From assembly GCA_944393575.1 (NCBI GenBank), contig CALYAP010000014.1:2819-66818 (forward strand): a DNA stretch of 64,000 nucleotides. The letters are read 5' to 3'. Source of the DNA: an uncultured Clostridia bacterium (GTDB taxonomy: Bacteria; Bacillota; Dehalobacteriia; UBA4068). Both the position numbers and the translations under genes were made by a program. The notes below the pieces were generated by a model that did not search any database, was not told the origin of the DNA, and saw only the letters and a program-made list of their open reading frames with translations. Each line of letters starts with the position of its first letter. Positions within the stretch are counted from its first letter, which is position 1. Shown here piece by piece: positions 2,445 to 39,377 of the stretch.

Positions 2445-4550
2445 TTAAAAATGCAAGGTTGCTAAATGGCTCAGATTGTTGATATCGACAATGGTGATAC
2501 TATTGAAAAGGCAGATATAGATGCTATCATCGACAAAGAGTCCCCGTGCTTCATTATACCAGTTTTCTTCATCAGCACTAAAAGAACCTCTTTGATAAAA
2601 TCCTTGGGTATCGTCATAACCATAGACTTCATATTGATTATTATCAGTGGGGAAGGCAATCAGGTCATGCGCTGCTGAAACCAAGATCGCCTTATGGTTA
2701 TAGAGGGTCTGAGAGTATTGGCTGTCTAAGATTAAAGTATGCTTTTCGGTTACATTAACCGGATCGCTGGTATCGAACATTGTCAATTTTAAATTACCGG
2801 TGACACCTGTTTGTTCATCTGCATCTTGCCCCAGACCCAATAAACGGCCATCGCTGTAGGGATGAAGATATTCAGAAAAACCAGGGATTTTTAACTCGGA
2901 GAGCATTTGCGGTGCATATGGATCAGAAAGATCTACGGTAAATAAGGGGTCTACCTGCCGGAAGGTAACAAAGTAGCCGACATTGCCTGTAAAACGGACG
3001 GAATAAACCTGCTCGCCAGGGGCAAGATCTTCGATGCTGCTGGCTAACTTTAATTCTTCGTCTAGTATCCACAAGGCGCTAGTGGTAGAATTTGCTTCAT
3101 CATCCCACTGGTAATTTTGCCAACCTCTGGCTTCATCAGTATAGATTTTATAGTTGTTGTTATTAACAGTGGTCACTGCCCGCAGATATCCATTGTATTC
3201 ATCAAGCGCAAACTGACTGTCCAGCCAACCTTCGATTTGGCCGGCAGCTACCAAACTAATACTTCCGTCACTAAGGGAGAAGCGCATAATATCAGTAACG
3301 CTTTGCTCCTCATAAGCTACCACAGTATATTGATCTTCAGTATAGGGGGAGCTTTCTGCAGTTTCATAATAGCTGCGGGCAATATAGAGATTATCATGAT
3401 TCATGTAAATAGTATCTCCGCCGCCTAAAACGCTGATCTTATCTTCGATGGTCTGACTTGTTAGGTTAATAGCGCTAATAATGGTATAAGTAGAGCTTTC
3501 TGCTTCTGGTAGCAGGCAGATAGCATCAGCATTGATAATAGTCCGTTCTTCATTTTGATAAATGCCAGGAACAAAGGTTGCTGGTTGTTCACTATCGATG
3601 CCGCTATAGACTGAATATTGACTGATAAGGTATAAAGTGTTATCGATTAACCGGGAACTGGTATAATAACCATCCTGTCCGACACTATTCAATAGTTGGG
3701 GAGAAGTAGGATCGCTGATATCATAAATTAGAATAGACGTCACTTCTGTGCTGCCTGGCCAATAGTCTGCCACTGCATCTGTCTTGACGGCAGCTCCATT
3801 GGCATCGGAATTGCTTGTTGCACTAGGATAACTGCAAATCATTAATTGAGCCTTAGAAGTGATTACTGCTAAATAGTTATCATAAACATAGATCTCCGAG
3901 GCAAATTGATAGCTTTCATCTGCTGCTAATTCATCAAAGTCGGGTAGTATCTTAGTTTGGGAAAGAATAGCGCTGTCAGCACCGTTGGCACTACTGATAA
4001 TCAATTCATTATCACGAAGCAGATAGATGTTTTGCCTATCAGTTTTGACAATATCTCCTTCATCAATGCCTGCTACCTGAGTATTAGTTTGCGAATAGTT
4101 TTCGGTTTCGGCTGAGTCAAACGCAGCGCTGGATTGCGGTGTGTTTACGTTATCGCTATTGGAAATATTTGCTGTAGGGGAGGATGAAGTATCTTCGCTG
4201 ATCACCTCTTCGGTAAAGCTGGAGTCGCCAAGCGAAGTTTGAATCAACGCTTGATAGATCTCATCATAATTGCTGGCCGCATAGACTAAATCACTGGAAA
4301 ACGGTTGCTGGAGATCAGTATTCTCCCCGTAGCTATCGGGTAGAAGGGCTGCTGCACCGAGAAAGAATAATAGGCAAGCAGCGATAAGCACAGCTATTTT
4401 TCCGCTACCTTTTTTCTTGGGCATTTTCTGGTGTGACTGTTGCTGTTGCTTTTGCTGTACTTTTTGCCAGGTGCTTTCAATTTCATTTTTGTTTGCTGGC
4501 GGTGCATCTTTGGTGAGTTTATTAAGATATTGATCGAAATCTTTATTCAT
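2445..4550 (-). CDS. membrane anti-sigma factor with large extracytoplasmic beta-propeller domain
   Basis: Short cytoplasmic N-terminus, one TM (IAVLIAACLLFFLGAAALL), ~600-aa secreted repeat domain. Its ATG overlaps the stop of the upstream ECF sigma (ATGAATAA). The track start at 4628 is probably too long. Confidence 0.7.
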   Translation of the reverse strand: MNKDFDQYLNKLTKDAPPANKNEIESTWQKVQQKQQQQSHQKMPKKKGSGKIAVLIAACLLFFLGAAALLPDSYGENTDLQQPFSSDLVYAASNYDEIYQALIQTSLGDSSFTEEVISEDTSSSPTANISNSDNVNTPQSSAAFDSAETENYSQTNTQVAGIDEGDIVKTDRQNIYLLRDNELIISSANGADSAILSQTKILPDFDELAADESYQFASEIYVYDNYLAVITSKAQLMICSYPSATSNSDANGAAVKTDAVADYWPGSTEVTSILIYDISDPTSPQLLNSVGQDGYYTSSRLIDNTLYLISQYSVYSGIDSEQPATFVPGIYQNEERTIINADAICLLPEAESSTYTIISAINLTSQTIEDKISVLGGGDTIYMNHDNLYIARSYYETAESSPYTEDQYTVVAYEEQSVTDIMRFSLSDGSISLVAAGQIEGWLDSQFALDEYNGYLRAVTTVNNNNYKIYTDEARGWQNYQWDDEANSTTSALWILDEELKLASSIEDLAPGEQVYSVRFTGNVGYFVTFRQVDPLFTVDLSDPYAPQMLSELKIPGFSEYLHPYSDGRLLGLGQDADEQTGVTGNLKLTMFDTSDPVNVTEKHTLILDSQYSQTLYNHKAILVSAAHDLIAFPTDNNQYEVYGYDDTQGFYQRGSFSADEENWYNEARGLFVDDSIYICLFNSITIVDINNLSHLATLHF

Positions 4551-5091
4551 TAATAATGCCCCTTTCCTGGAGGTCTTTTCGTAGTTTGAGCTTGCTTTGG
4601 TAAAGCCGGTTGCTGATTTGTTTTTCATTCATCTGTAAGTGTGCTGCAATGTCCCGTACTGATTCTAAAAGATAATGCCTTCTAACGAATATTTCCCGGT
4701 CTGGCTCTGGTAGAAGATTGACTGCTTGTTGTAATATGTCGCTATCTTCTTGTGCCAACAAATATTCGACTATATCATGTTGGTCATAAAGCAATTCATC
4801 GTTCAAGGGAACCATATTGCTCCGTGACAGTTGTTGGAGACGGTTGATTGCCTGATGACGGGCGGTAACGATCAGTAAGCCTTTGAGCGAGCCCCGCTTA
4901 GGATTCAGCTTGGAGGCATTTTTCCAGATCTTGATAAAGGTATCGGCAATAGCCTCCTCAATATCCTCCGGATGGCCTGCTAGAACATTGGCACAAATTT
5001 TACCAACAAGCCCACGATAGGCACTGATCAGTTGATGCAGTCCTTCCTGTGGCGTTCTTTTTAATAATTTGATAATGGCGATATCGTCCAT
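4543..5091 (-). CDS. ECF (sigma-70 family) RNA polymerase sigma factor
   Basis: Region 2/4 ECF architecture; translationally coupled to the downstream anti-sigma gene; likely start at the ATGATG after an AAGGAGGA RBS. Confidence 0.85.
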   Translation of the reverse strand: MDDIAIIKLLKRTPQEGLHQLISAYRGLVGKICANVLAGHPEDIEEAIADTFIKIWKNASKLNPKRGSLKGLLIVTARHQAINRLQQLSRSNMVPLNDELLYDQHDIVEYLLAQEDSDILQQAVNLLPEPDREIFVRRHYLLESVRDIAAHLQMNEKQISNRLYQSKLKLRKDLQERGIINE

Positions 5092-5243
5092 CATATCCTC
5101 CTTGGCCAAGGAAAATATCTTTCACTTATATATACAGGTATAAGCACGTTTTTTCTTAAACGTATTTGCCAAAATGACTTGAAATTCATCCTTCAGCATA
5201 ACAACCCTTAAACTACTAATCAAATGAACAGTAGGCAAACAAA

Positions 5244-5269
5244 AACTCCCCTGTTATAACAGGGGAGTT
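5244..5269. terminator. bidirectional terminator hairpin (aactcccctg...caggggagtt)
   Basis: Perfect 10-12 bp palindrome with T-runs on both strands; ends the minus-strand small-gene pair. Confidence 0.65.
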
Positions 5270-5326
5270 TGTTGGTTATAGCACATCTTGATGTTTGTTG
5301 AAAACTTCAACTATATCACGGCGGCA

Positions 5327-5497
5327 TCAGGTGCCTTTGGGATTTTTGTTTTTGCAGTCGCAATGGGTCATCGCCCCAGTAGCTGCAATCACTTTATCTA
5401 CAGTATCAGCTCCTGCACGCATAGCGGCAACAATATCGTCTTCAGTAACCTCATCGCAATAGCATATATATTTGGGCGATGTAGTCTCAGATACCAT
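5327..5497 (-). CDS. BFD-like [2Fe-2S]-binding mini-protein (56 aa), missed by the 60-aa ORF cutoff
   Basis: My translation is MVSETTSPKYICYCDEVTEDDIVAAMRAGADTVDKVIAATGAMTHCDCKNKNPKGT, with CxC...CxC like the Bfd-like ORF at 18039; GGAG 3 nt upstream of the ATG. Confidence 0.6.
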   Translation of the reverse strand: MVSETTSPKYICYCDEVTEDDIVAAMRAGADTVDKVIAATGAMTHCDCKNKNPKGT

Positions 5498-5526
5498 TTG
5501 CTCCACGACCTTTCATTATGATATTT

Positions 5527-5754
5527 TTATAACAATACCGAGGACGTGTATTCGACTTTGATGTCATTATCTTTGGTACGTGCTAATTTGGCCTTATTGC
5601 CTCTACCATCTTCTAATGTCATTTTTTCTAGCTTATAGGTATTAAAAAAGTTGACTACCTCAGACTCGATAAAAGCAGACCAGTTTTTTACTTGAACCTT
5701 CTCTGGTTCCAAGGCTTCCTCAAGAGTTTGAGGATTAGTAGCATATTGACTCAT
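5527..5754 (-). CDS. hypothetical 75-aa protein, probably co-transcribed with the Bfd-like mini-protein
   Basis: Strong RBS GGAGGGA 5 nt upstream of the ATG; no recognisable domain. Confidence 0.5.
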   Translation of the reverse strand: MSQYATNPQTLEEALEPEKVQVKNWSAFIESEVVNFFNTYKLEKMTLEDGRGNKAKLARTKDNDIKVEYTSSVLL

Positions 5755-7844: not shown

Positions 7845-8114
7845 AATTTGTTTTATTCTCATAATATCCTCTCAACAATCCCTATTCCCTGTCGCATAAA
7901 GCGTCATACATACTTTTTACACATATTTAACCGAAAGCGGGTAGTTGCTTTATGCTGCACATTATATAATCAAAATGGAATATTGTCTTTGTGATAAGTT
8001 AAAATGCGAGACGCTTTTGGGGCCTTTTCATCACAAACGTTTCGACAAACCAGACCGCTATGTTTTCGGTAAGAATGGCGTTAAAAAGTTATTTTAAAAG
8101 GAGAAGCTGGTATA

Positions 8115-8611
8115 TGAAGGTGATAATCCACGATCTTAGAGAAGGGGAGGCTCTTTTTCTGGGAAAATCGGATAAGGATTCGGTTGTCATTCATGCGAAC
8201 AATCAGTATGCTCCCTGCTGTGGCTGTTTTAAGTGTTGGCTGAAGAACGCCGGTTTTTGCATAATGAAGGATTCTTTGCAGCACATTGGAGCGCTCATTG
8301 GCCAGAGTGATCCGCTGATCATCGTCAGCCAGTGCTGTTATGGTGGGTATAGCAGCCCTGTCAAGGCTATCTTGGATCGTGCGATTGGGGAGTCTCTCCC
8401 GTTTTTTACCTGGCGGGGCGGGCAAACTCACCACATTAGCCGTTATCCCCATCGGAAGTTGCTGCGTGTTTATTTTTATGGGGAATGCACGAAATTTGAA
8501 GAGGAGATAGCCAAAGAGGTTGTCGAGCGCAACCGTCTGAATCTGGATTATGAGGAAGCGGATGTGGTTTTCTTCAAAAATATCGAACAGATAAAGGAGG
8601 CCAGCTTATGA
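8115..8611 (+). CDS. Isf-like flavodoxin-fold protein with compact Cys motif (CCGCFKCx7C) but lacking the N-terminal FMN phosphate-binding loop
   Basis: APCCGCFKCWLKNAGFC followed by DPLIIVSQCCYGGYSSPVKAILDRAIG resembles the Isf / NADPH-dependent FMN reductase fold. RBS AAAGGAGAAG 7 nt upstream; ATGA overlap with the next gene. Confidence 0.55.
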
Positions 8612-9351
8612 ATCTTCTAATCTTGAATGCAAGTCCCAAGAAAAAGGGTGGCGCCTCCCGATTTTTCTCGGGTTTATTCCGGCTGTTTCTGCCGGGCATC
8701 CGAAAAAAAGTGGTATCCCTTAGCTGTCAACAAGATTTTCAGCGAGTACTGGAACTATTGCCCGGCATGGATGTGGTATGCCTTTTCGTCCCTCTTTATG
8801 TAGATGGCCTTCCGTCCCATATAGTGGAATTTCTCATCCAAGCGGAGGGATACTGTAAAAATCATCCTTGCCAGTTCCGATTGTATGTACTTGCCAATAA
8901 CGGTTTTGTCGAAGGAAAACAAAATCGACCCGCTCTAAATATGCTTCAGGCGTGGTGTGAAAGGGCAGAAATCACTTGGGGTGGCGGAATCGGAATTGGC
9001 GGCGGGGTGATGCTCCAGGTATTGGGGATCATTTACCCCATCCTGATTGGAATCATCCTGTTGCAAATGGCGTTATCCCTTTGCAGCATCGGCACCATTT
9101 CAGGCGAATTATGGCGTTCTTTCGTCATCCAGATGTTAACATGGCTTTTTCTCAATAGCGGCATGTTGTGGTGTATGGCACGTCTTTCGTCAGCTATCCG
9201 TAGGGAGCGAGTATTGCCCAACCAATTTACGCGGGTCATGATACCCTCTTGGCTGTTTATCCCCATCGCGGACGTATTTATGATTTTATCTTCTCTCTTT
9301 CAAGGCCGCTTTCTTTTCGCACTTTTGCAGCAGGACAAATGGCATAGTTAA
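8608..9351 (+). CDS. NAD(P)H-dependent FMN reductase-like flavodoxin-fold domain fused to a C-terminal multi-TM membrane anchor
   Basis: LILNASPKKKGGASRFF phosphate-loop-like N-terminus and VVCLFVPLYVDGLPSHIVEFL; C-terminal ~100 aa form hydrophobic helices. Confidence 0.55.
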   Translation: MNLLILNASPKKKGGASRFFSGLFRLFLPGIRKKVVSLSCQQDFQRVLELLPGMDVVCLFVPLYVDGLPSHIVEFLIQAEGYCKNHPCQFRLYVLANNGFVEGKQNRPALNMLQAWCERAEITWGGGIGIGGGVMLQVLGIIYPILIGIILLQMALSLCSIGTISGELWRSFVIQMLTWLFLNSGMLWCMARLSSAIRRERVLPNQFTRVMIPSWLFIPIADVFMILSSLFQGRFLFALLQQDKWHS

Positions 9352-9364
9352 TAGGAGGATAGTT

Positions 9365-9910
9365 ATGGAGCATATCATTGTCTACGGCAGCCATTATGGA
9401 AGCACCCGCCGATATGCGGAAAAACTGTCTGAACAAACCGATATTCCGGCGGTTAGTTATAAACAAATGCCAGATCTTTCCGATATAAAAACTATTATCT
9501 ATTTGGGTGGATTGTATGCTGGCGGCGTCCTGGGATTGGCAAAAACCTTGCGGGGCCTCTCCTTGCATGGGGGACAAACGTTGATCATCGTCACAGTGGG
9601 TTTGGCTGACCCCAAAGAACCGGAAAATCGAGAAAATATTCGAGTATCTCTTCAAAGACGGCTTCCGACAGAACTGTTTTGTCGGACGAAAATTTTTCAT
9701 CTTCGAGGGGGTATTGATTACCAGAACCTGAACGTCGGACACCGCACGATAATGGCATTACTGTACCAGTCTGTTTGCAAGACGTCTTGTGAAAAGCAAA
9801 CCGCAGAGAATCGGGCATTTATAGAAACTTATGGAAAACAGGTGGATTTTACAGATTTCCGTGCGTTGCAACCGATTATTGAGGAAATACAGGGGAAACG
9901 ATATGAATAA
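9365..9910 (+). CDS. flavodoxin-domain protein (HemG-like / Flavodoxin_5-type)
   Basis: MEHIIVYGSHYGSTRRYAEKL and IIYLGGLYAGG pattern matches the long-chain flavodoxin/HemG-like family; RBS TAGGAGGA. Confidence 0.6.
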   Translation: MEHIIVYGSHYGSTRRYAEKLSEQTDIPAVSYKQMPDLSDIKTIIYLGGLYAGGVLGLAKTLRGLSLHGGQTLIIVTVGLADPKEPENRENIRVSLQRRLPTELFCRTKIFHLRGGIDYQNLNVGHRTIMALLYQSVCKTSCEKQTAENRAFIETYGKQVDFTDFRALQPIIEEIQGKRYE

Positions 9911-10712
9911 AACCTTTAAAAATATACTGAAAATCCTTCTAATCGGTCTTATCACCACTATCGTCCGCATCATCGGGCAACTTTCTATCCCAGCTGGCGA
10001 GCAGACAGTTCTGGAGCCTAGTGTTTTCGCACAAAACGGTACCATGCCACTGGCTTTTACTGTCTATGGGATTTTCGCTTACTCACTGATTGCTTCGTTG
10101 TTCCTGCTCATCCGGAACCGGTTGGGCGGAAAGCTGATTTTACAGGGTCTGAAATACGGCCTTTCCTGCTGTGTTGTGTGGATTGTTTATCTTTTAGAAC
10201 CTTTACCCCATGTAGCGGTCATTGATCGGATTACTTACCCAGTGGCTGATAGCTTGGCTTTGATTGTTATGGGTTTGCTGCTTGGATGGCTATTTGGAAA
10301 ACCCAAATATTCAGCAGGCCTGCAGAAAACTGCATTTCCTGTCCTTCCAGTGCTGACCGTGACTGCCTGCTTCTTCGCCGGGCGGATGATACAATATTTT
10401 ATCTTTGGCATTTACTCTTCTTTTGATGAGAAACCATTGGAAACGGTACTGTGGTGTCTGTTGACAGGTCTTGCAATCTCCTGTGTGATGTCATGGCTGA
10501 ATCTTTATATTAGCAACGGAAATAGGGTAAAGAGGGCAATGATTTTGGGCTGCCTTTTGTTTGGGGTGGATTTGATTCTCTTCAATTTCTTTATGCCATT
10601 AGTGTTTGATGCAGACATCTCCGATCTGATCCTCCGAAGCTTAATCGACATCCTGGCAGTGACTCTCGGATGTCTGTCATTCTCGAATAAGCGTAATGCC
10701 GTTGAGCTGTAA
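9903..10712 (+). CDS. uncharacterised polytopic membrane protein (~7 TM)
   Basis: ATGA overlap with the upstream flavodoxin gene; hydrophobic throughout; no family recognised. Confidence 0.5.
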   Translation: MNKTFKNILKILLIGLITTIVRIIGQLSIPAGEQTVLEPSVFAQNGTMPLAFTVYGIFAYSLIASLFLLIRNRLGGKLILQGLKYGLSCCVVWIVYLLEPLPHVAVIDRITYPVADSLALIVMGLLLGWLFGKPKYSAGLQKTAFPVLPVLTVTACFFAGRMIQYFIFGIYSSFDEKPLETVLWCLLTGLAISCVMSWLNLYISNGNRVKRAMILGCLLFGVDLILFNFFMPLVFDADISDLILRSLIDILAVTLGCLSFSNKRNAVEL

Positions 10713-10726
10713 GGAAGGGGAACTGG

Positions 10727-11917
10727 ATGCAGGAAAAACGAAGTATTCGCTTTGGGAAATGGGTGCTTAAGGTTGTGGTATCTTATGCGGTGTTTATTAT
10801 CATCGGCCTGCTATTCTCCCTTGTCCCGGCCAGTCGTCTTGGATTGTCTGAAGAAATGTTTTTCAACCTTCGGATGTTTTTCATGCTCTTTGGCCCGATC
10901 TATCTCACCCTGATCGTCAAAATTATTTTGACCTTTATTCCTGCCATAAAAAAGCAGACAAAAGATATCGCCGAAAAAAGCAGGGGAGTTTTGTTTACCA
11001 TCACGGCACTGCTGCTATTTGCTAACCTATCCAATGCGCAGACGGTCTCCGACTTTACAACTGGATATGTCCAGGGCAAAGGATTGCGGAATCTGGAAAA
11101 AAGTAAACGGTATTCCCTGAAAGGCAAGCGTTTTCTAAATGTCTTTCTGCCGGTGGGGTTCTATTTGCTGGTTTTAGAACTGTTGACGCTCATCGTCTGT
11201 ATTGTCGTTTTTGCACCTCTTTCACAGATTGCCAGCCATGCCTTTATTCTTACCATTGCTTTGACCGCCTTGCTGTTGCTTTTGATTCCGCTTATCCTAT
11301 CCTTAATTTCTGGTTATCAGGGAGACAAGGCCGTATATAAAGAAAGGCTCGCACAGGAAAAGCAAGCTGCTGTCCAGTCAGATGTCCGGGTGCTGGAAAC
11401 CGACCCAGTTTGCCGGAAGCGGTATCTCCTGCTGCCAAAAATATTGACACTGTTAGTTTGTCCTGGCGTTTGCTTGATTTCTGGACTTGTACTTTCTCTT
11501 ACCAAGAACGCTCAGGATCTTTTGACCGTCCAGCTATTGAGGAGGCCATTTTTGGTGTTGATGGCTGTCGCCGTTTTCTCCTTTATCCCTCTGCTGATGT
11601 ATTGGGTCAACTGCTCCGGAACATCCTTGGTACAGCGGGTTTATCTTGAACAGAACCAGCTGTATTATACCGGTTACAGTGGCAGCATGGAGGAACGTAG
11701 GGAATTCACCTTTACACTGCTTCAACTGGAGAGCTATCGTGTTGGGAAAAGAGCCATCCGCATCCGAGGGCAGTTTACCAAAAAGACAAAGGATTCTTAC
11801 GCTACCAATAAAAAAGGCCCGTTCACCAAAACATTGTGGCTCCCTCGAACCTTCACGTTGGAACAGGAACAGGCCCTGTTGCAATTTTTACATGATAAAG
11901 CAGCTCATGTTCATTGA
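10727..11917 (+). CDS. uncharacterised membrane protein with N-terminal TM bundle and C-terminal soluble (possibly bacterial PH-like) domain
   Basis: RBS GGAAGGGGAA; multiple TM segments; C-terminal 90 aa are hydrophilic and K/R-rich. Confidence 0.5.
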   Translation: MQEKRSIRFGKWVLKVVVSYAVFIIIGLLFSLVPASRLGLSEEMFFNLRMFFMLFGPIYLTLIVKIILTFIPAIKKQTKDIAEKSRGVLFTITALLLFANLSNAQTVSDFTTGYVQGKGLRNLEKSKRYSLKGKRFLNVFLPVGFYLLVLELLTLIVCIVVFAPLSQIASHAFILTIALTALLLLLIPLILSLISGYQGDKAVYKERLAQEKQAAVQSDVRVLETDPVCRKRYLLLPKILTLLVCPGVCLISGLVLSLTKNAQDLLTVQLLRRPFLVLMAVAVFSFIPLLMYWVNCSGTSLVQRVYLEQNQLYYTGYSGSMEERREFTFTLLQLESYRVGKRAIRIRGQFTKKTKDSYATNKKGPFTKTLWLPRTFTLEQEQALLQFLHDKAAHVH

Positions 11918-12270: not shown

Positions 12271-12315
12271 GAAAAAAGCACTTAGAAGCGAATGGTTCTA
12301 AGTGCTTTTGTTTTT
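12271..12315. terminator. bidirectional rho-independent terminator
   Basis: A6-agcacttagaa-loop-ttctaagtgct-T9. Confidence 0.8.
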
Positions 12316-38426: not shown

Positions 38427-39377
38427 ATGGAATACCGGGAATTGGGTGATACTGGTATATTGGTGTCTAGGGTCTGCTTTGGTAGTCTTACCTTAGGCCC
38501 ACTATGCGCTAATTTATCTTTAGCTGAAGGTAGAGATTTGTTGCTGGAAGCCTTTAATCTAGGGGTTACCTTTATCGATTCGGCTGAGCAATATCGTACT
38601 TATCCATATATTAGAGCTGCTCTTGATCAAAGCGAGGTGCCAATAGTCGTTGCTAGTAAGACTTATGCCCATAATGACCAGGAGGCTTCTTGGGCTATCG
38701 AGGATGCCCGTATAGCTTTAGGCCGCGAGACCTTGGATATCTTTTTGCTGCATGAAGTGCGAGATGAAGAAGATTGGCATTCCCGGTCAGCGGTGTGGCA
38801 AGTGCTGTTAGATGCTAAGGCCAATGGTATTATTAAAGCAATAGGTCTTTCTACCCATAGTGCTAGGGTTGCATCCATGGCTGCAAATATTTCAGAAGTG
38901 GATATCATTCACCCTTTGCTGAATTTAGCGGGTATTGGCATCAATGATGGCGGCACTGATGCTATGCTATCTGCCATAGCTGCCGCCAAAGCAGCAGGAA
39001 AAGGTGTTTATAGTATGAAGGCTATTGCCGGCGGTGGACTGATGCACCAAGCGAAGGAAGCCATTTGCTGGGCTTATCAACAACCTGAAGTTGATGCAGT
39101 CGCCATAGGCTTCAAGGACAGAGCTGAATTAATCACTGATATTGGCTGGTTGAATGGGGAAGAACCAGCAGAGGCGCAAGAGGTTGCTTTAATTGATCGA
39201 AATATGACTTTTGATAAGGAACCTAGTTGCCATGGGTGTGGCCTATGTATTAAACGCTGCAGTACTGGCGCTCTTTATCTTGGCGATGATAATTTGGTAG
39301 CTTGGGATAAAAGCAAATGCCTTTATTGCGGCTATTGCATAGCTGCTTGCCCCTGGTTCTGTATTTCTTTTTGTTAA
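38427..39377 (+). CDS. aldo/keto reductase fused to a C-terminal 2x[4Fe-4S] ferredoxin domain
   Basis: MEYRELGDTGILVSRVCFG AKR N-terminus; CHGCGLCIKRC and CLYCGYCIAACP at the C-terminus; no recognisable SD. Confidence 0.8.
   Translation: MEYRELGDTGILVSRVCFGSLTLGPLCANLSLAEGRDLLLEAFNLGVTFIDSAEQYRTYPYIRAALDQSEVPIVVASKTYAHNDQEASWAIEDARIALGRETLDIFLLHEVRDEEDWHSRSAVWQVLLDAKANGIIKAIGLSTHSARVASMAANISEVDIIHPLLNLAGIGINDGGTDAMLSAIAAAKAAGKGVYSMKAIAGGGLMHQAKEAICWAYQQPEVDAVAIGFKDRAELITDIGWLNGEEPAEAQEVALIDRNMTFDKEPSCHGCGLCIKRCSTGALYLGDDNLVAWDKSKCLYCGYCIAACPWFCISFC

Follow-up and report, generated by a model that had tools for sequence, protein, structure and literature searches.

Gene A, a small gene near the left end of the window (the window being the whole 64,000-nt stretch of DNA that was analyzed), and the translationally coupled gene B probably encode, on balance, the iron-sulfur subunit and the flavin subunit of a two-part oxidoreductase resembling the iron-sulfur flavoprotein Isf, in either heteromeric or fused form. 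The observed basis for this reading is the homology of both A and B to Isf, their complementary loss of motifs, their near-obligate adjacency together with repeated fusion, and the flavodoxin folds of both proteins. It takes the place of the stand-alone, Fe-S-only derivative that an earlier, sequence-only reading of the window had proposed: A occurs as half of a conserved gene pair or fusion in which B supplies the flavin loops that A is missing.

Cysteine motif and flavin loops of gene A

The ATG of gene A is at 8114, one nucleotide before the start given in the sequence-only reading (8115), and its stop codon ends at 8611; a GGAG ribosome-binding site lies 8–11 nt 5′ of the ATG, and the homologs begin at the same methionine, MK(V/T)IIHDL. 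All three peptides quoted in that reading belong to this frame, specifically MKVIIHDLREGEALFLGKSDKD at residues 1–22, APCCGCFKCWLKNAGFCIMKD at residues 33–53, and DPLIIVSQCCYGGYSSPVKAILDRAIG at residues 66–92, and the cysteine motif it described is present as C35-x2-C38-x2-C41-x7-C49. A is a soluble protein in which hydropathy revealed no transmembrane segment. The features of the gene are as follows:

8114–8611, forward strand: gene A, Isf-like protein of 165 aa that has a flavodoxin fold and the Cys motif but no phosphate loop
8132–8179, forward strand: A residues 7–22, expected site of the FMN phosphate loop and helix 1, located from alignments and the model
8216–8260, forward strand: predicted [4Fe-4S] ligands C35, C38, C41, and C49, from alignment with the Isf cysteines
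8339–8380, forward strand: Y76-G-G-Y-S...K84...D88-R89 of the strand-3 loop and helix 3, common to Isf
8429–8446, forward strand: H106-H107-x-x-R110-Y111, specific to the A family

The cysteine motif is more than a chance arrangement, arising in 0.14% of 200,000 shuffles of the protein's own residues, and among the window's other stop-free segments with 100 codons or more, only one contained such a motif, at 39318. The sequence at that position, CLYCGYCIAACPWFC (ORF 38427–39377), is a classical ferredoxin-type 4Fe-4S motif, CxxCxxCxxxCP. From a search of 1.84 billion proteins, the best 150 cluster representatives at 50% identity were examined, and 142 of them retained the motif of A; of the other eight, seven were fragments or frameshifted, and P0309 had a Tyr in place of the third Cys. 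All 26 rows of the family alignment (A1) also contained it, except for one Tyr at C49. The family consensus around the cysteines is CxGCFxCWxKTPGxC, whereas the extra C36 and the C74/C75 pair of A were not conserved in the family alignments.

Twenty genuine Isf sequences, the best match being named from Methanosarcina lacustris, were aligned as a reference set. The Isf strings given in the sequence-only reading, IAPCKACGACRDQDFC and VAAPVYMGNYPAQLKALFDRS, are correct and both occur in "iron-sulfur flavoprotein [Methanosarcina lacustris]." Invariant across the 20 sequences were I6, S7, S9, and P10 of the phosphate loop; the cysteines C47, C50, C53, and C59; D63, P83, G87, K94, D98, and R99; and the loop residues G121, S123, N125, G127, Q128, and E129, with GGSRNGGQE present in most of them. 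The A family matched Isf by hhalign with a probability of 97.8% and an E-value of 1e-12, residues 16–92 of A aligning with residues 30–102 of Isf, and an Isf HMM gave A 32.3 bits across these same residues. In this alignment, C35, C38, C41, and C49 of A fall column by column on Isf C47, C50, C53, and C59, and D53, G77, K84, D88, and R89 coincide with Isf invariants, the last four corresponding to G87, K94, D98, and R99.

The Isf motif, CX2CX2CX5-7C (CX2CX2CX4-7C in the wider form against which A was compared), most likely ligates a [4Fe-4S] cluster (PMC3164229). Compact Cys4 motifs can also bind Zn, and the catalytic flavin determinants have been lost from A, as would suit a Zn site, or else a structural or regulatory (redox-sensing) site, in a non-catalytic pseudo-subunit that stabilizes or regulates the flavoprotein B; nevertheless, the motif of A is homologous position by position to the site described as holding the [4Fe-4S] cluster of Isf (PMC3164229), and its anaerobic hosts are rich in Fe-S proteins, which makes this reading very unlikely. 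An Isf relative in an anaerobic Firmicute had been called unusual, yet Isf is widespread in anaerobic prokaryotes (PMC3164229), and one survey reported Isf genes in every strain of Clostridium cluster I that it covered (bioRxiv 10.1101/803486); a review (PMC8097209) does not treat Isf.

Family libraries recognized A only in part. The Pfam model FMN_red (PF03358) covered residues 40–90 of A from the window at 21.9 bits, below its gathering cut-off of 24, and matched 14 of 26 A relatives at E ≤ 0.01. Neither A nor B matched the flavodoxin models PF00258 and Flavodoxin_5, and NCBIfam gave no meaningful match for any of genes A to E. Sequence and profile searches of PDB sequences with A, in a set that does not include Isf, returned nothing significant, and a near-exact Isf query of PDB sequences retrieved only a flavone reductase, at 42 bits.

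The absence of an N-terminal phosphate loop (G-I-S-G-S-P-x-K-x-x-N in Isf), as described in the sequence-only reading, is borne out family-wide by alignments of 143 relatives. Strand 1 leads into the motif I-I-H-D7-L, in which an invariant Asp (D7) follows the strand in place of a Gly or Ser, and no G/S/T-rich loop comes after it; in the HMM alignment of these 143 diverse relatives, no residue at positions 9–24 exceeds a frequency of 34%. The loop is not intact in the family. Residues 7–22 are unconserved and ~12 residues shorter than expected, and the sequences place 16 residues between strand 1 and strand 2 in A, versus ~28 in Isf, where they carry the loop and helix 1. The model of A (pLDDT 82) has strand 1 at residues 2–6, a four-residue helix at 13–16, for which pLDDT drops to 65, and strand 2 at 23–27. 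The overall fold is flavodoxin-like alpha/beta, as in the Isf family; the N-terminus itself did not align to Isf or FMN_red by hhalign, the Isf HMM, or Pfam.

In the second flavin loop of Isf (P-x-Y; P-V-Y after strand 3), the invariant Pro is Q, R, or K in the A family, with the Tyr position shifted. The C-terminal half of A did not align to Isf by hhalign, and both the hhalign and HMM alignments end before the third flavin loop, where R-G-G-Q-T-H-H of A resembles R-N-G-G-Q-E of Isf by eye only; model confidence is low at residues 93–101. Within the A-specific H-H-x-x-R-Y, H107 and R110 are conserved at 92% and 90%, and the motif is also present in the A–B fusions described below. The wider pattern, E/Q-M/T-H-H-x-x-R-Y, lies in a region of low model confidence and might serve to bind a ligand or phosphate or to form an interface.

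Against a two-part reading, the conserved Y-G-G-Y-S and H-H-x-x-R-Y of A could bind a flavin or another ligand non-canonically. Taken further, these motifs would replace the phosphate loop in binding FMN or another flavin, making A a complete, divergent Isf and B a second flavoprotein, an arrangement in keeping with the Isf-like strand-3 loop and helix 3, with the by-eye resemblance at the third loop, and with the conserved His-His-Arg, whose positive charge could bind phosphate. We nonetheless consider it unlikely, given that A lacks the canonical phosphate loop and most of helix 1, that the invariant Pro of Isf has been lost, that the alignments stop short of the third flavin loop, and that model confidence is low over residues 93–101.

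Gene B, adjacency, and fusion

The reading that we prefer, a two-part enzyme, places the flavin on B, which overlaps A by 4 nt (ATGA):

8608–9351, forward strand: gene B, 247 aa, a flavodoxin-like domain (residues 1–130) followed by a hydrophobic helical tail
8629–8658, forward strand: B residues 8–17 (ASPKKKGGAS), predicted FMN phosphate-binding loop, aligning with GSPRKGQN of Isf
9004–9300, forward strand: B residues 133–231, predicted membrane anchor, from hydropathy and AF2

B matched Isf over Isf residues 1–100 with a probability of 95.5%, including both the phosphate loop and P-x-Y, and the gap in the alignment falls exactly over the Cys insertion of Isf. The losses are complementary, A having the cysteines without the flavin loops and B the flavin loops without the Cys insertion. 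In the B-family alignment, P10, K11, and S17 are invariant, and the family motifs are S-P-K-K-x-G-x-S, P-L-Y-V-D-x-x-P-S, and N-x-G-F-x-E-G-x-Q-N, of which not every position is strictly invariant. The C-terminal half of B did not align to Isf; there, the putative anchor consists of a long helical hairpin and a third hydrophobic helix (AF2 helices at 133–160, 166–199, and 214–231). Pfam FMN_red gave no match to B from the window and matched 14 of 24 B relatives. Direct profile comparison of A with B by hhalign detected no similarity, and the label of paralogs therefore rests on the match of each to Isf. Two cysteines of B, C83 (8854–8856) and C117 (8956–8958), are nearly invariant in two-gene B proteins and are not kept in the A–B fusions.

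To survey the loci, a pattern scan was applied to one genome per species, from which 80 loci were kept and 79 were testable, one of the 80 contigs ending too early. At 77 of the 79, B began downstream of A after no more than ~110 nt, and the stop codon of A and the start codon of B commonly overlapped or adjoined; the non-adjacent loci were L085, which has no B, and L024, in which a B-like gene lies 4 kb away. The reverse survey, starting from B relatives, found A immediately upstream. Full-length A-linker-B fusions made up 17 of the 150 best representatives, with lengths of 386–547 aa, variable low-complexity linkers, and a domain order equal to the gene order, A then B (e.g., P0289 and P0336). 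Three further candidates, P0180, P0184, and P0205, were rejected as fusions because their linkers are out of frame, marking them as metagenome assembly or frameshift artifacts.

These linkage data bear on the possibility that A is a stand-alone, flavin-free [4Fe-4S] carrier, similar to a ferredoxin built on a flavodoxin scaffold, with B only an operon neighbor. Such a carrier would account for a conserved Cys motif alongside a missing phosphate loop, for a soluble protein without a transmembrane segment, and for the one genome (L085) with A and no adjacent B; however, it is quite unlikely in view of the adjacency at 77 of 79 loci with commonly overlapping or abutting codons, the recurrence of A–B fusions, and the many conserved surface and loop residues of A beyond the cluster site.

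The A–B family was defined by an A-type domain (CxGCFxCWxKxPGxC, no P-loop) followed, in the next gene or the same chain, by a B-type domain (SPKxxGxxS, PLYVDxxPS, NxGFxEGxQN), and the window contains this arrangement. The family is large, comprising at least 2,394 clusters when grouped at 50% identity, and relatives of A were found in at least 581 species genomes. The taxa with A–B include Clostridia (e.g., Lachnospiraceae, Oscillospiraceae, and Christensenellaceae), Erysipelotrichaceae, Treponema, Coriobacteriia, Anaerolineae, Muribaculum, and Paenibacillus. Human-gut metagenome contigs from a spore-forming bacterium resembling Lachnospiraceae share synteny with the window and encode a near-identical protein (P0004); no contig was found for the exact window protein (P0001).

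Operon and regulatory surroundings

The sequence-only reading had made A the first gene of a membrane-protein operon, and for this lineage the description stands: the five genes from A to E lie close together, and three of them (B, D, and E) encode hydrophobic proteins. Across the family, only A–B is conserved, with C, D, and E restricted to the nearest relatives. A gap of 13 nt separates B from C and one of 14 nt separates D from E; C and D overlap. The remaining features of the operon and its upstream region are as follows:

7909–7973, forward strand: conserved upstream element, candidate promoter/operator, from blastn against related loci and alignment A5
9365–9910, forward strand: gene C, Flavodoxin_5 (HemG-like), Pfam PF12724, E-value 9e-16
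9903–10712, forward strand: gene D, 269 aa, polytopic membrane protein without a family assignment
10727–11917, forward strand: gene E, 396 aa, polytopic membrane protein without a family assignment
12274–12309, no strand assigned: bidirectional terminator-like hairpin that probably ends the operon

Synteny of gene C is kept in L008–L014. As candidate core components, C, D, and E were rejected because they co-occur only in relatives of at least ~63% identity. The operon of the window encodes three different flavodoxin-fold proteins in a row (A, B, and C).

Upstream of A, dinB ends at a terminator, leaving a leader of ~490 nt before A. Within this leader, an element of ~65 nt is conserved in four related loci (L007, L008, L009, and L011) and contains a TATAAT/TACAAT box (TATAAT in the window, at about 7965–7970) and an imperfect inverted repeat, AAAGCG-N6-TGCTTT in the window, which matches the consensus AAAGCG-N6-CGCTTT at 5/6 positions. 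A repeat search of the upstream region found no inverted repeat, the short imperfect one being visible only in the multi-species alignment, and Rfam matched nothing in the window, this element included. The element at 7909–7973 is a candidate promoter and operator on sequence grounds. Further upstream, beyond dinB, the reverse strand at 4543–5754 encodes an ECF-type sigma factor, a small BFD-like [2Fe-2S] domain protein (5327–5506), and a 75-aa ORF, a group that is syntenic in gut metagenome contigs.

At related loci, the gene immediately upstream of A is co-directional in 61 of 73 cases and of TetR or PadR type in roughly a third of the 73, with 15 matches to TetR_C_33, five to TetR_N, and six to seven of PadR type. 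MerR, aldo-keto reductase, hydrolase, and PNPOx-like genes are also found near A–B at some loci; the operon of the window itself has no adjacent regulator. Neighborhoods with TetR/PadR, MerR, aldo-keto reductase, and hydrolase genes fit an inducible redox or xenobiotic response, and the repressor-adjacent contexts favor an inducible detoxification or stress role. A UvrA-like double-ABC ATPase paralog is encoded upstream of A–B in two loci (L007:2373-4847 and L009:2373-4847), and another is located in the Treponema locus, ~1.4 kb downstream of A (L024:6907-9465).

Proposed division of cofactors and comparison with known systems

From the homology, motifs, and linkage described above, we infer the cofactor content of the A–B pair, its physical complex, the direction of electron flow, the donor, and the acceptor. 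The four cysteines of A (C35, C38, C41, and C49) would hold one [4Fe-4S] cluster in an Isf-type insertion between strand 2 and helix 2, as their alignment suggests, and B, judging from its motifs and fold, would bind FMN through the loops that it has kept. Linkage and fusion suggest that A and B associate, and they would do so as a pseudo-homo-oligomer, in the manner of Isf subunits. The cluster on A would receive its electrons from a low-potential donor, most likely ferredoxin, and would pass them singly across the subunit interface to the FMN on B. The FMN on the membrane-anchored B may then reduce a membrane-proximal or lipophilic acceptor, which could be O2 or H2O2, as for Isf, or alternatively a quinone or xenobiotic. 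Reduction of O2 or H2O2 is the activity reported for Isf. Work by Andrade et al. from 2005 reportedly describes Isf as a tetramer with electron exchange between a cluster and an FMN that belong to different subunits; if so, distributing the two cofactors onto paralogous subunits needs no new geometry and is mechanistically natural.

More tentatively, and with somewhat less than even confidence, we propose that A and B represent an unrecognized, very widespread class of membrane-associated Fe-S/flavin oxidoreductases of gut and rumen anaerobes, in which the Isf cofactors would be split onto paralogous subunits or domains of an obligate heteromer that passes electrons from ferredoxin to lipophilic acceptors (quinones, xenobiotics, or oxygen species) under TetR/PadR-type small-molecule control. 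If the split-cofactor model is true, the pair would be a clean, natural case of subfunctionalization of a two-cofactor redox protein into Fe-S and flavin subunits, and the model would provide a working hypothesis for a large, generically named family, many members of which come from human and animal guts. We found no library model or paper that describes the A–B pair, and the existing names of family members are "flavodoxin family protein," "hypothetical protein," and "multimeric flavodoxin WrbA." The family is a candidate for the reduction of oxygen or xenobiotics (drugs, dyes, or polyphenols) in gut Firmicutes because its genes are often located behind TetR/PadR repressors and its fold class is that of quinone, azo, and nitro reductases.

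Among flavodoxin-like reductases, SsuE, ChrR/YieF, AzoR, NQO1, and SP1951 differ from the A–B pair in lacking an Fe-S site, in forming homo-oligomers with FMN or FAD in each subunit, and in possessing the phosphate loop that is absent from A. The flavone reductase FLR/Cd1 of Flavonifractor plautii (PDB 7d38) has all of its 310 aa in one chain, without an A/B split, and its phosphate loop is intact. Cd1 is the closest solved sequence to Isf and itself has, at the Isf position, a C-x2-C-x2-C and then a fourth Cys 11 residues further on; the main text of the paper on this enzyme does not mention Fe-S or cysteines. The HemG-type long flavodoxins (Flavodoxin_5) include gene C, which is outside the conserved core, whereas A and B match none of them.

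The closest system is Isf itself (Methanosarcina thermophila prototype; COG0655, "multimeric flavodoxin WrbA"/PF03358), with which the pair shares a flavodoxin-like fold and anaerobic hosts. The Cys motif of A occupies the same strand 2-helix 2 insertion with all four Cys aligned, and A also shares with Isf the D that follows this motif, as well as G...K...DR in the strand-3 loop and helix 3. In contrast, Isf is a single chain of ~190 aa with both FMN and cluster, and here the determinants are divided between A and B. The last Cys spacing is x5 in Isf and x7 in A, which also lacks the GSPxKxGN phosphate loop and the Pro of P-x-Y and has an unalignable C-terminal half, while B adds a membrane tail; the window proteins also score below the FMN_red gathering cut-off. 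The A–B pair is an extension of the Isf/FMN_red superfamily with known cofactor logic, and it overturns no established view.
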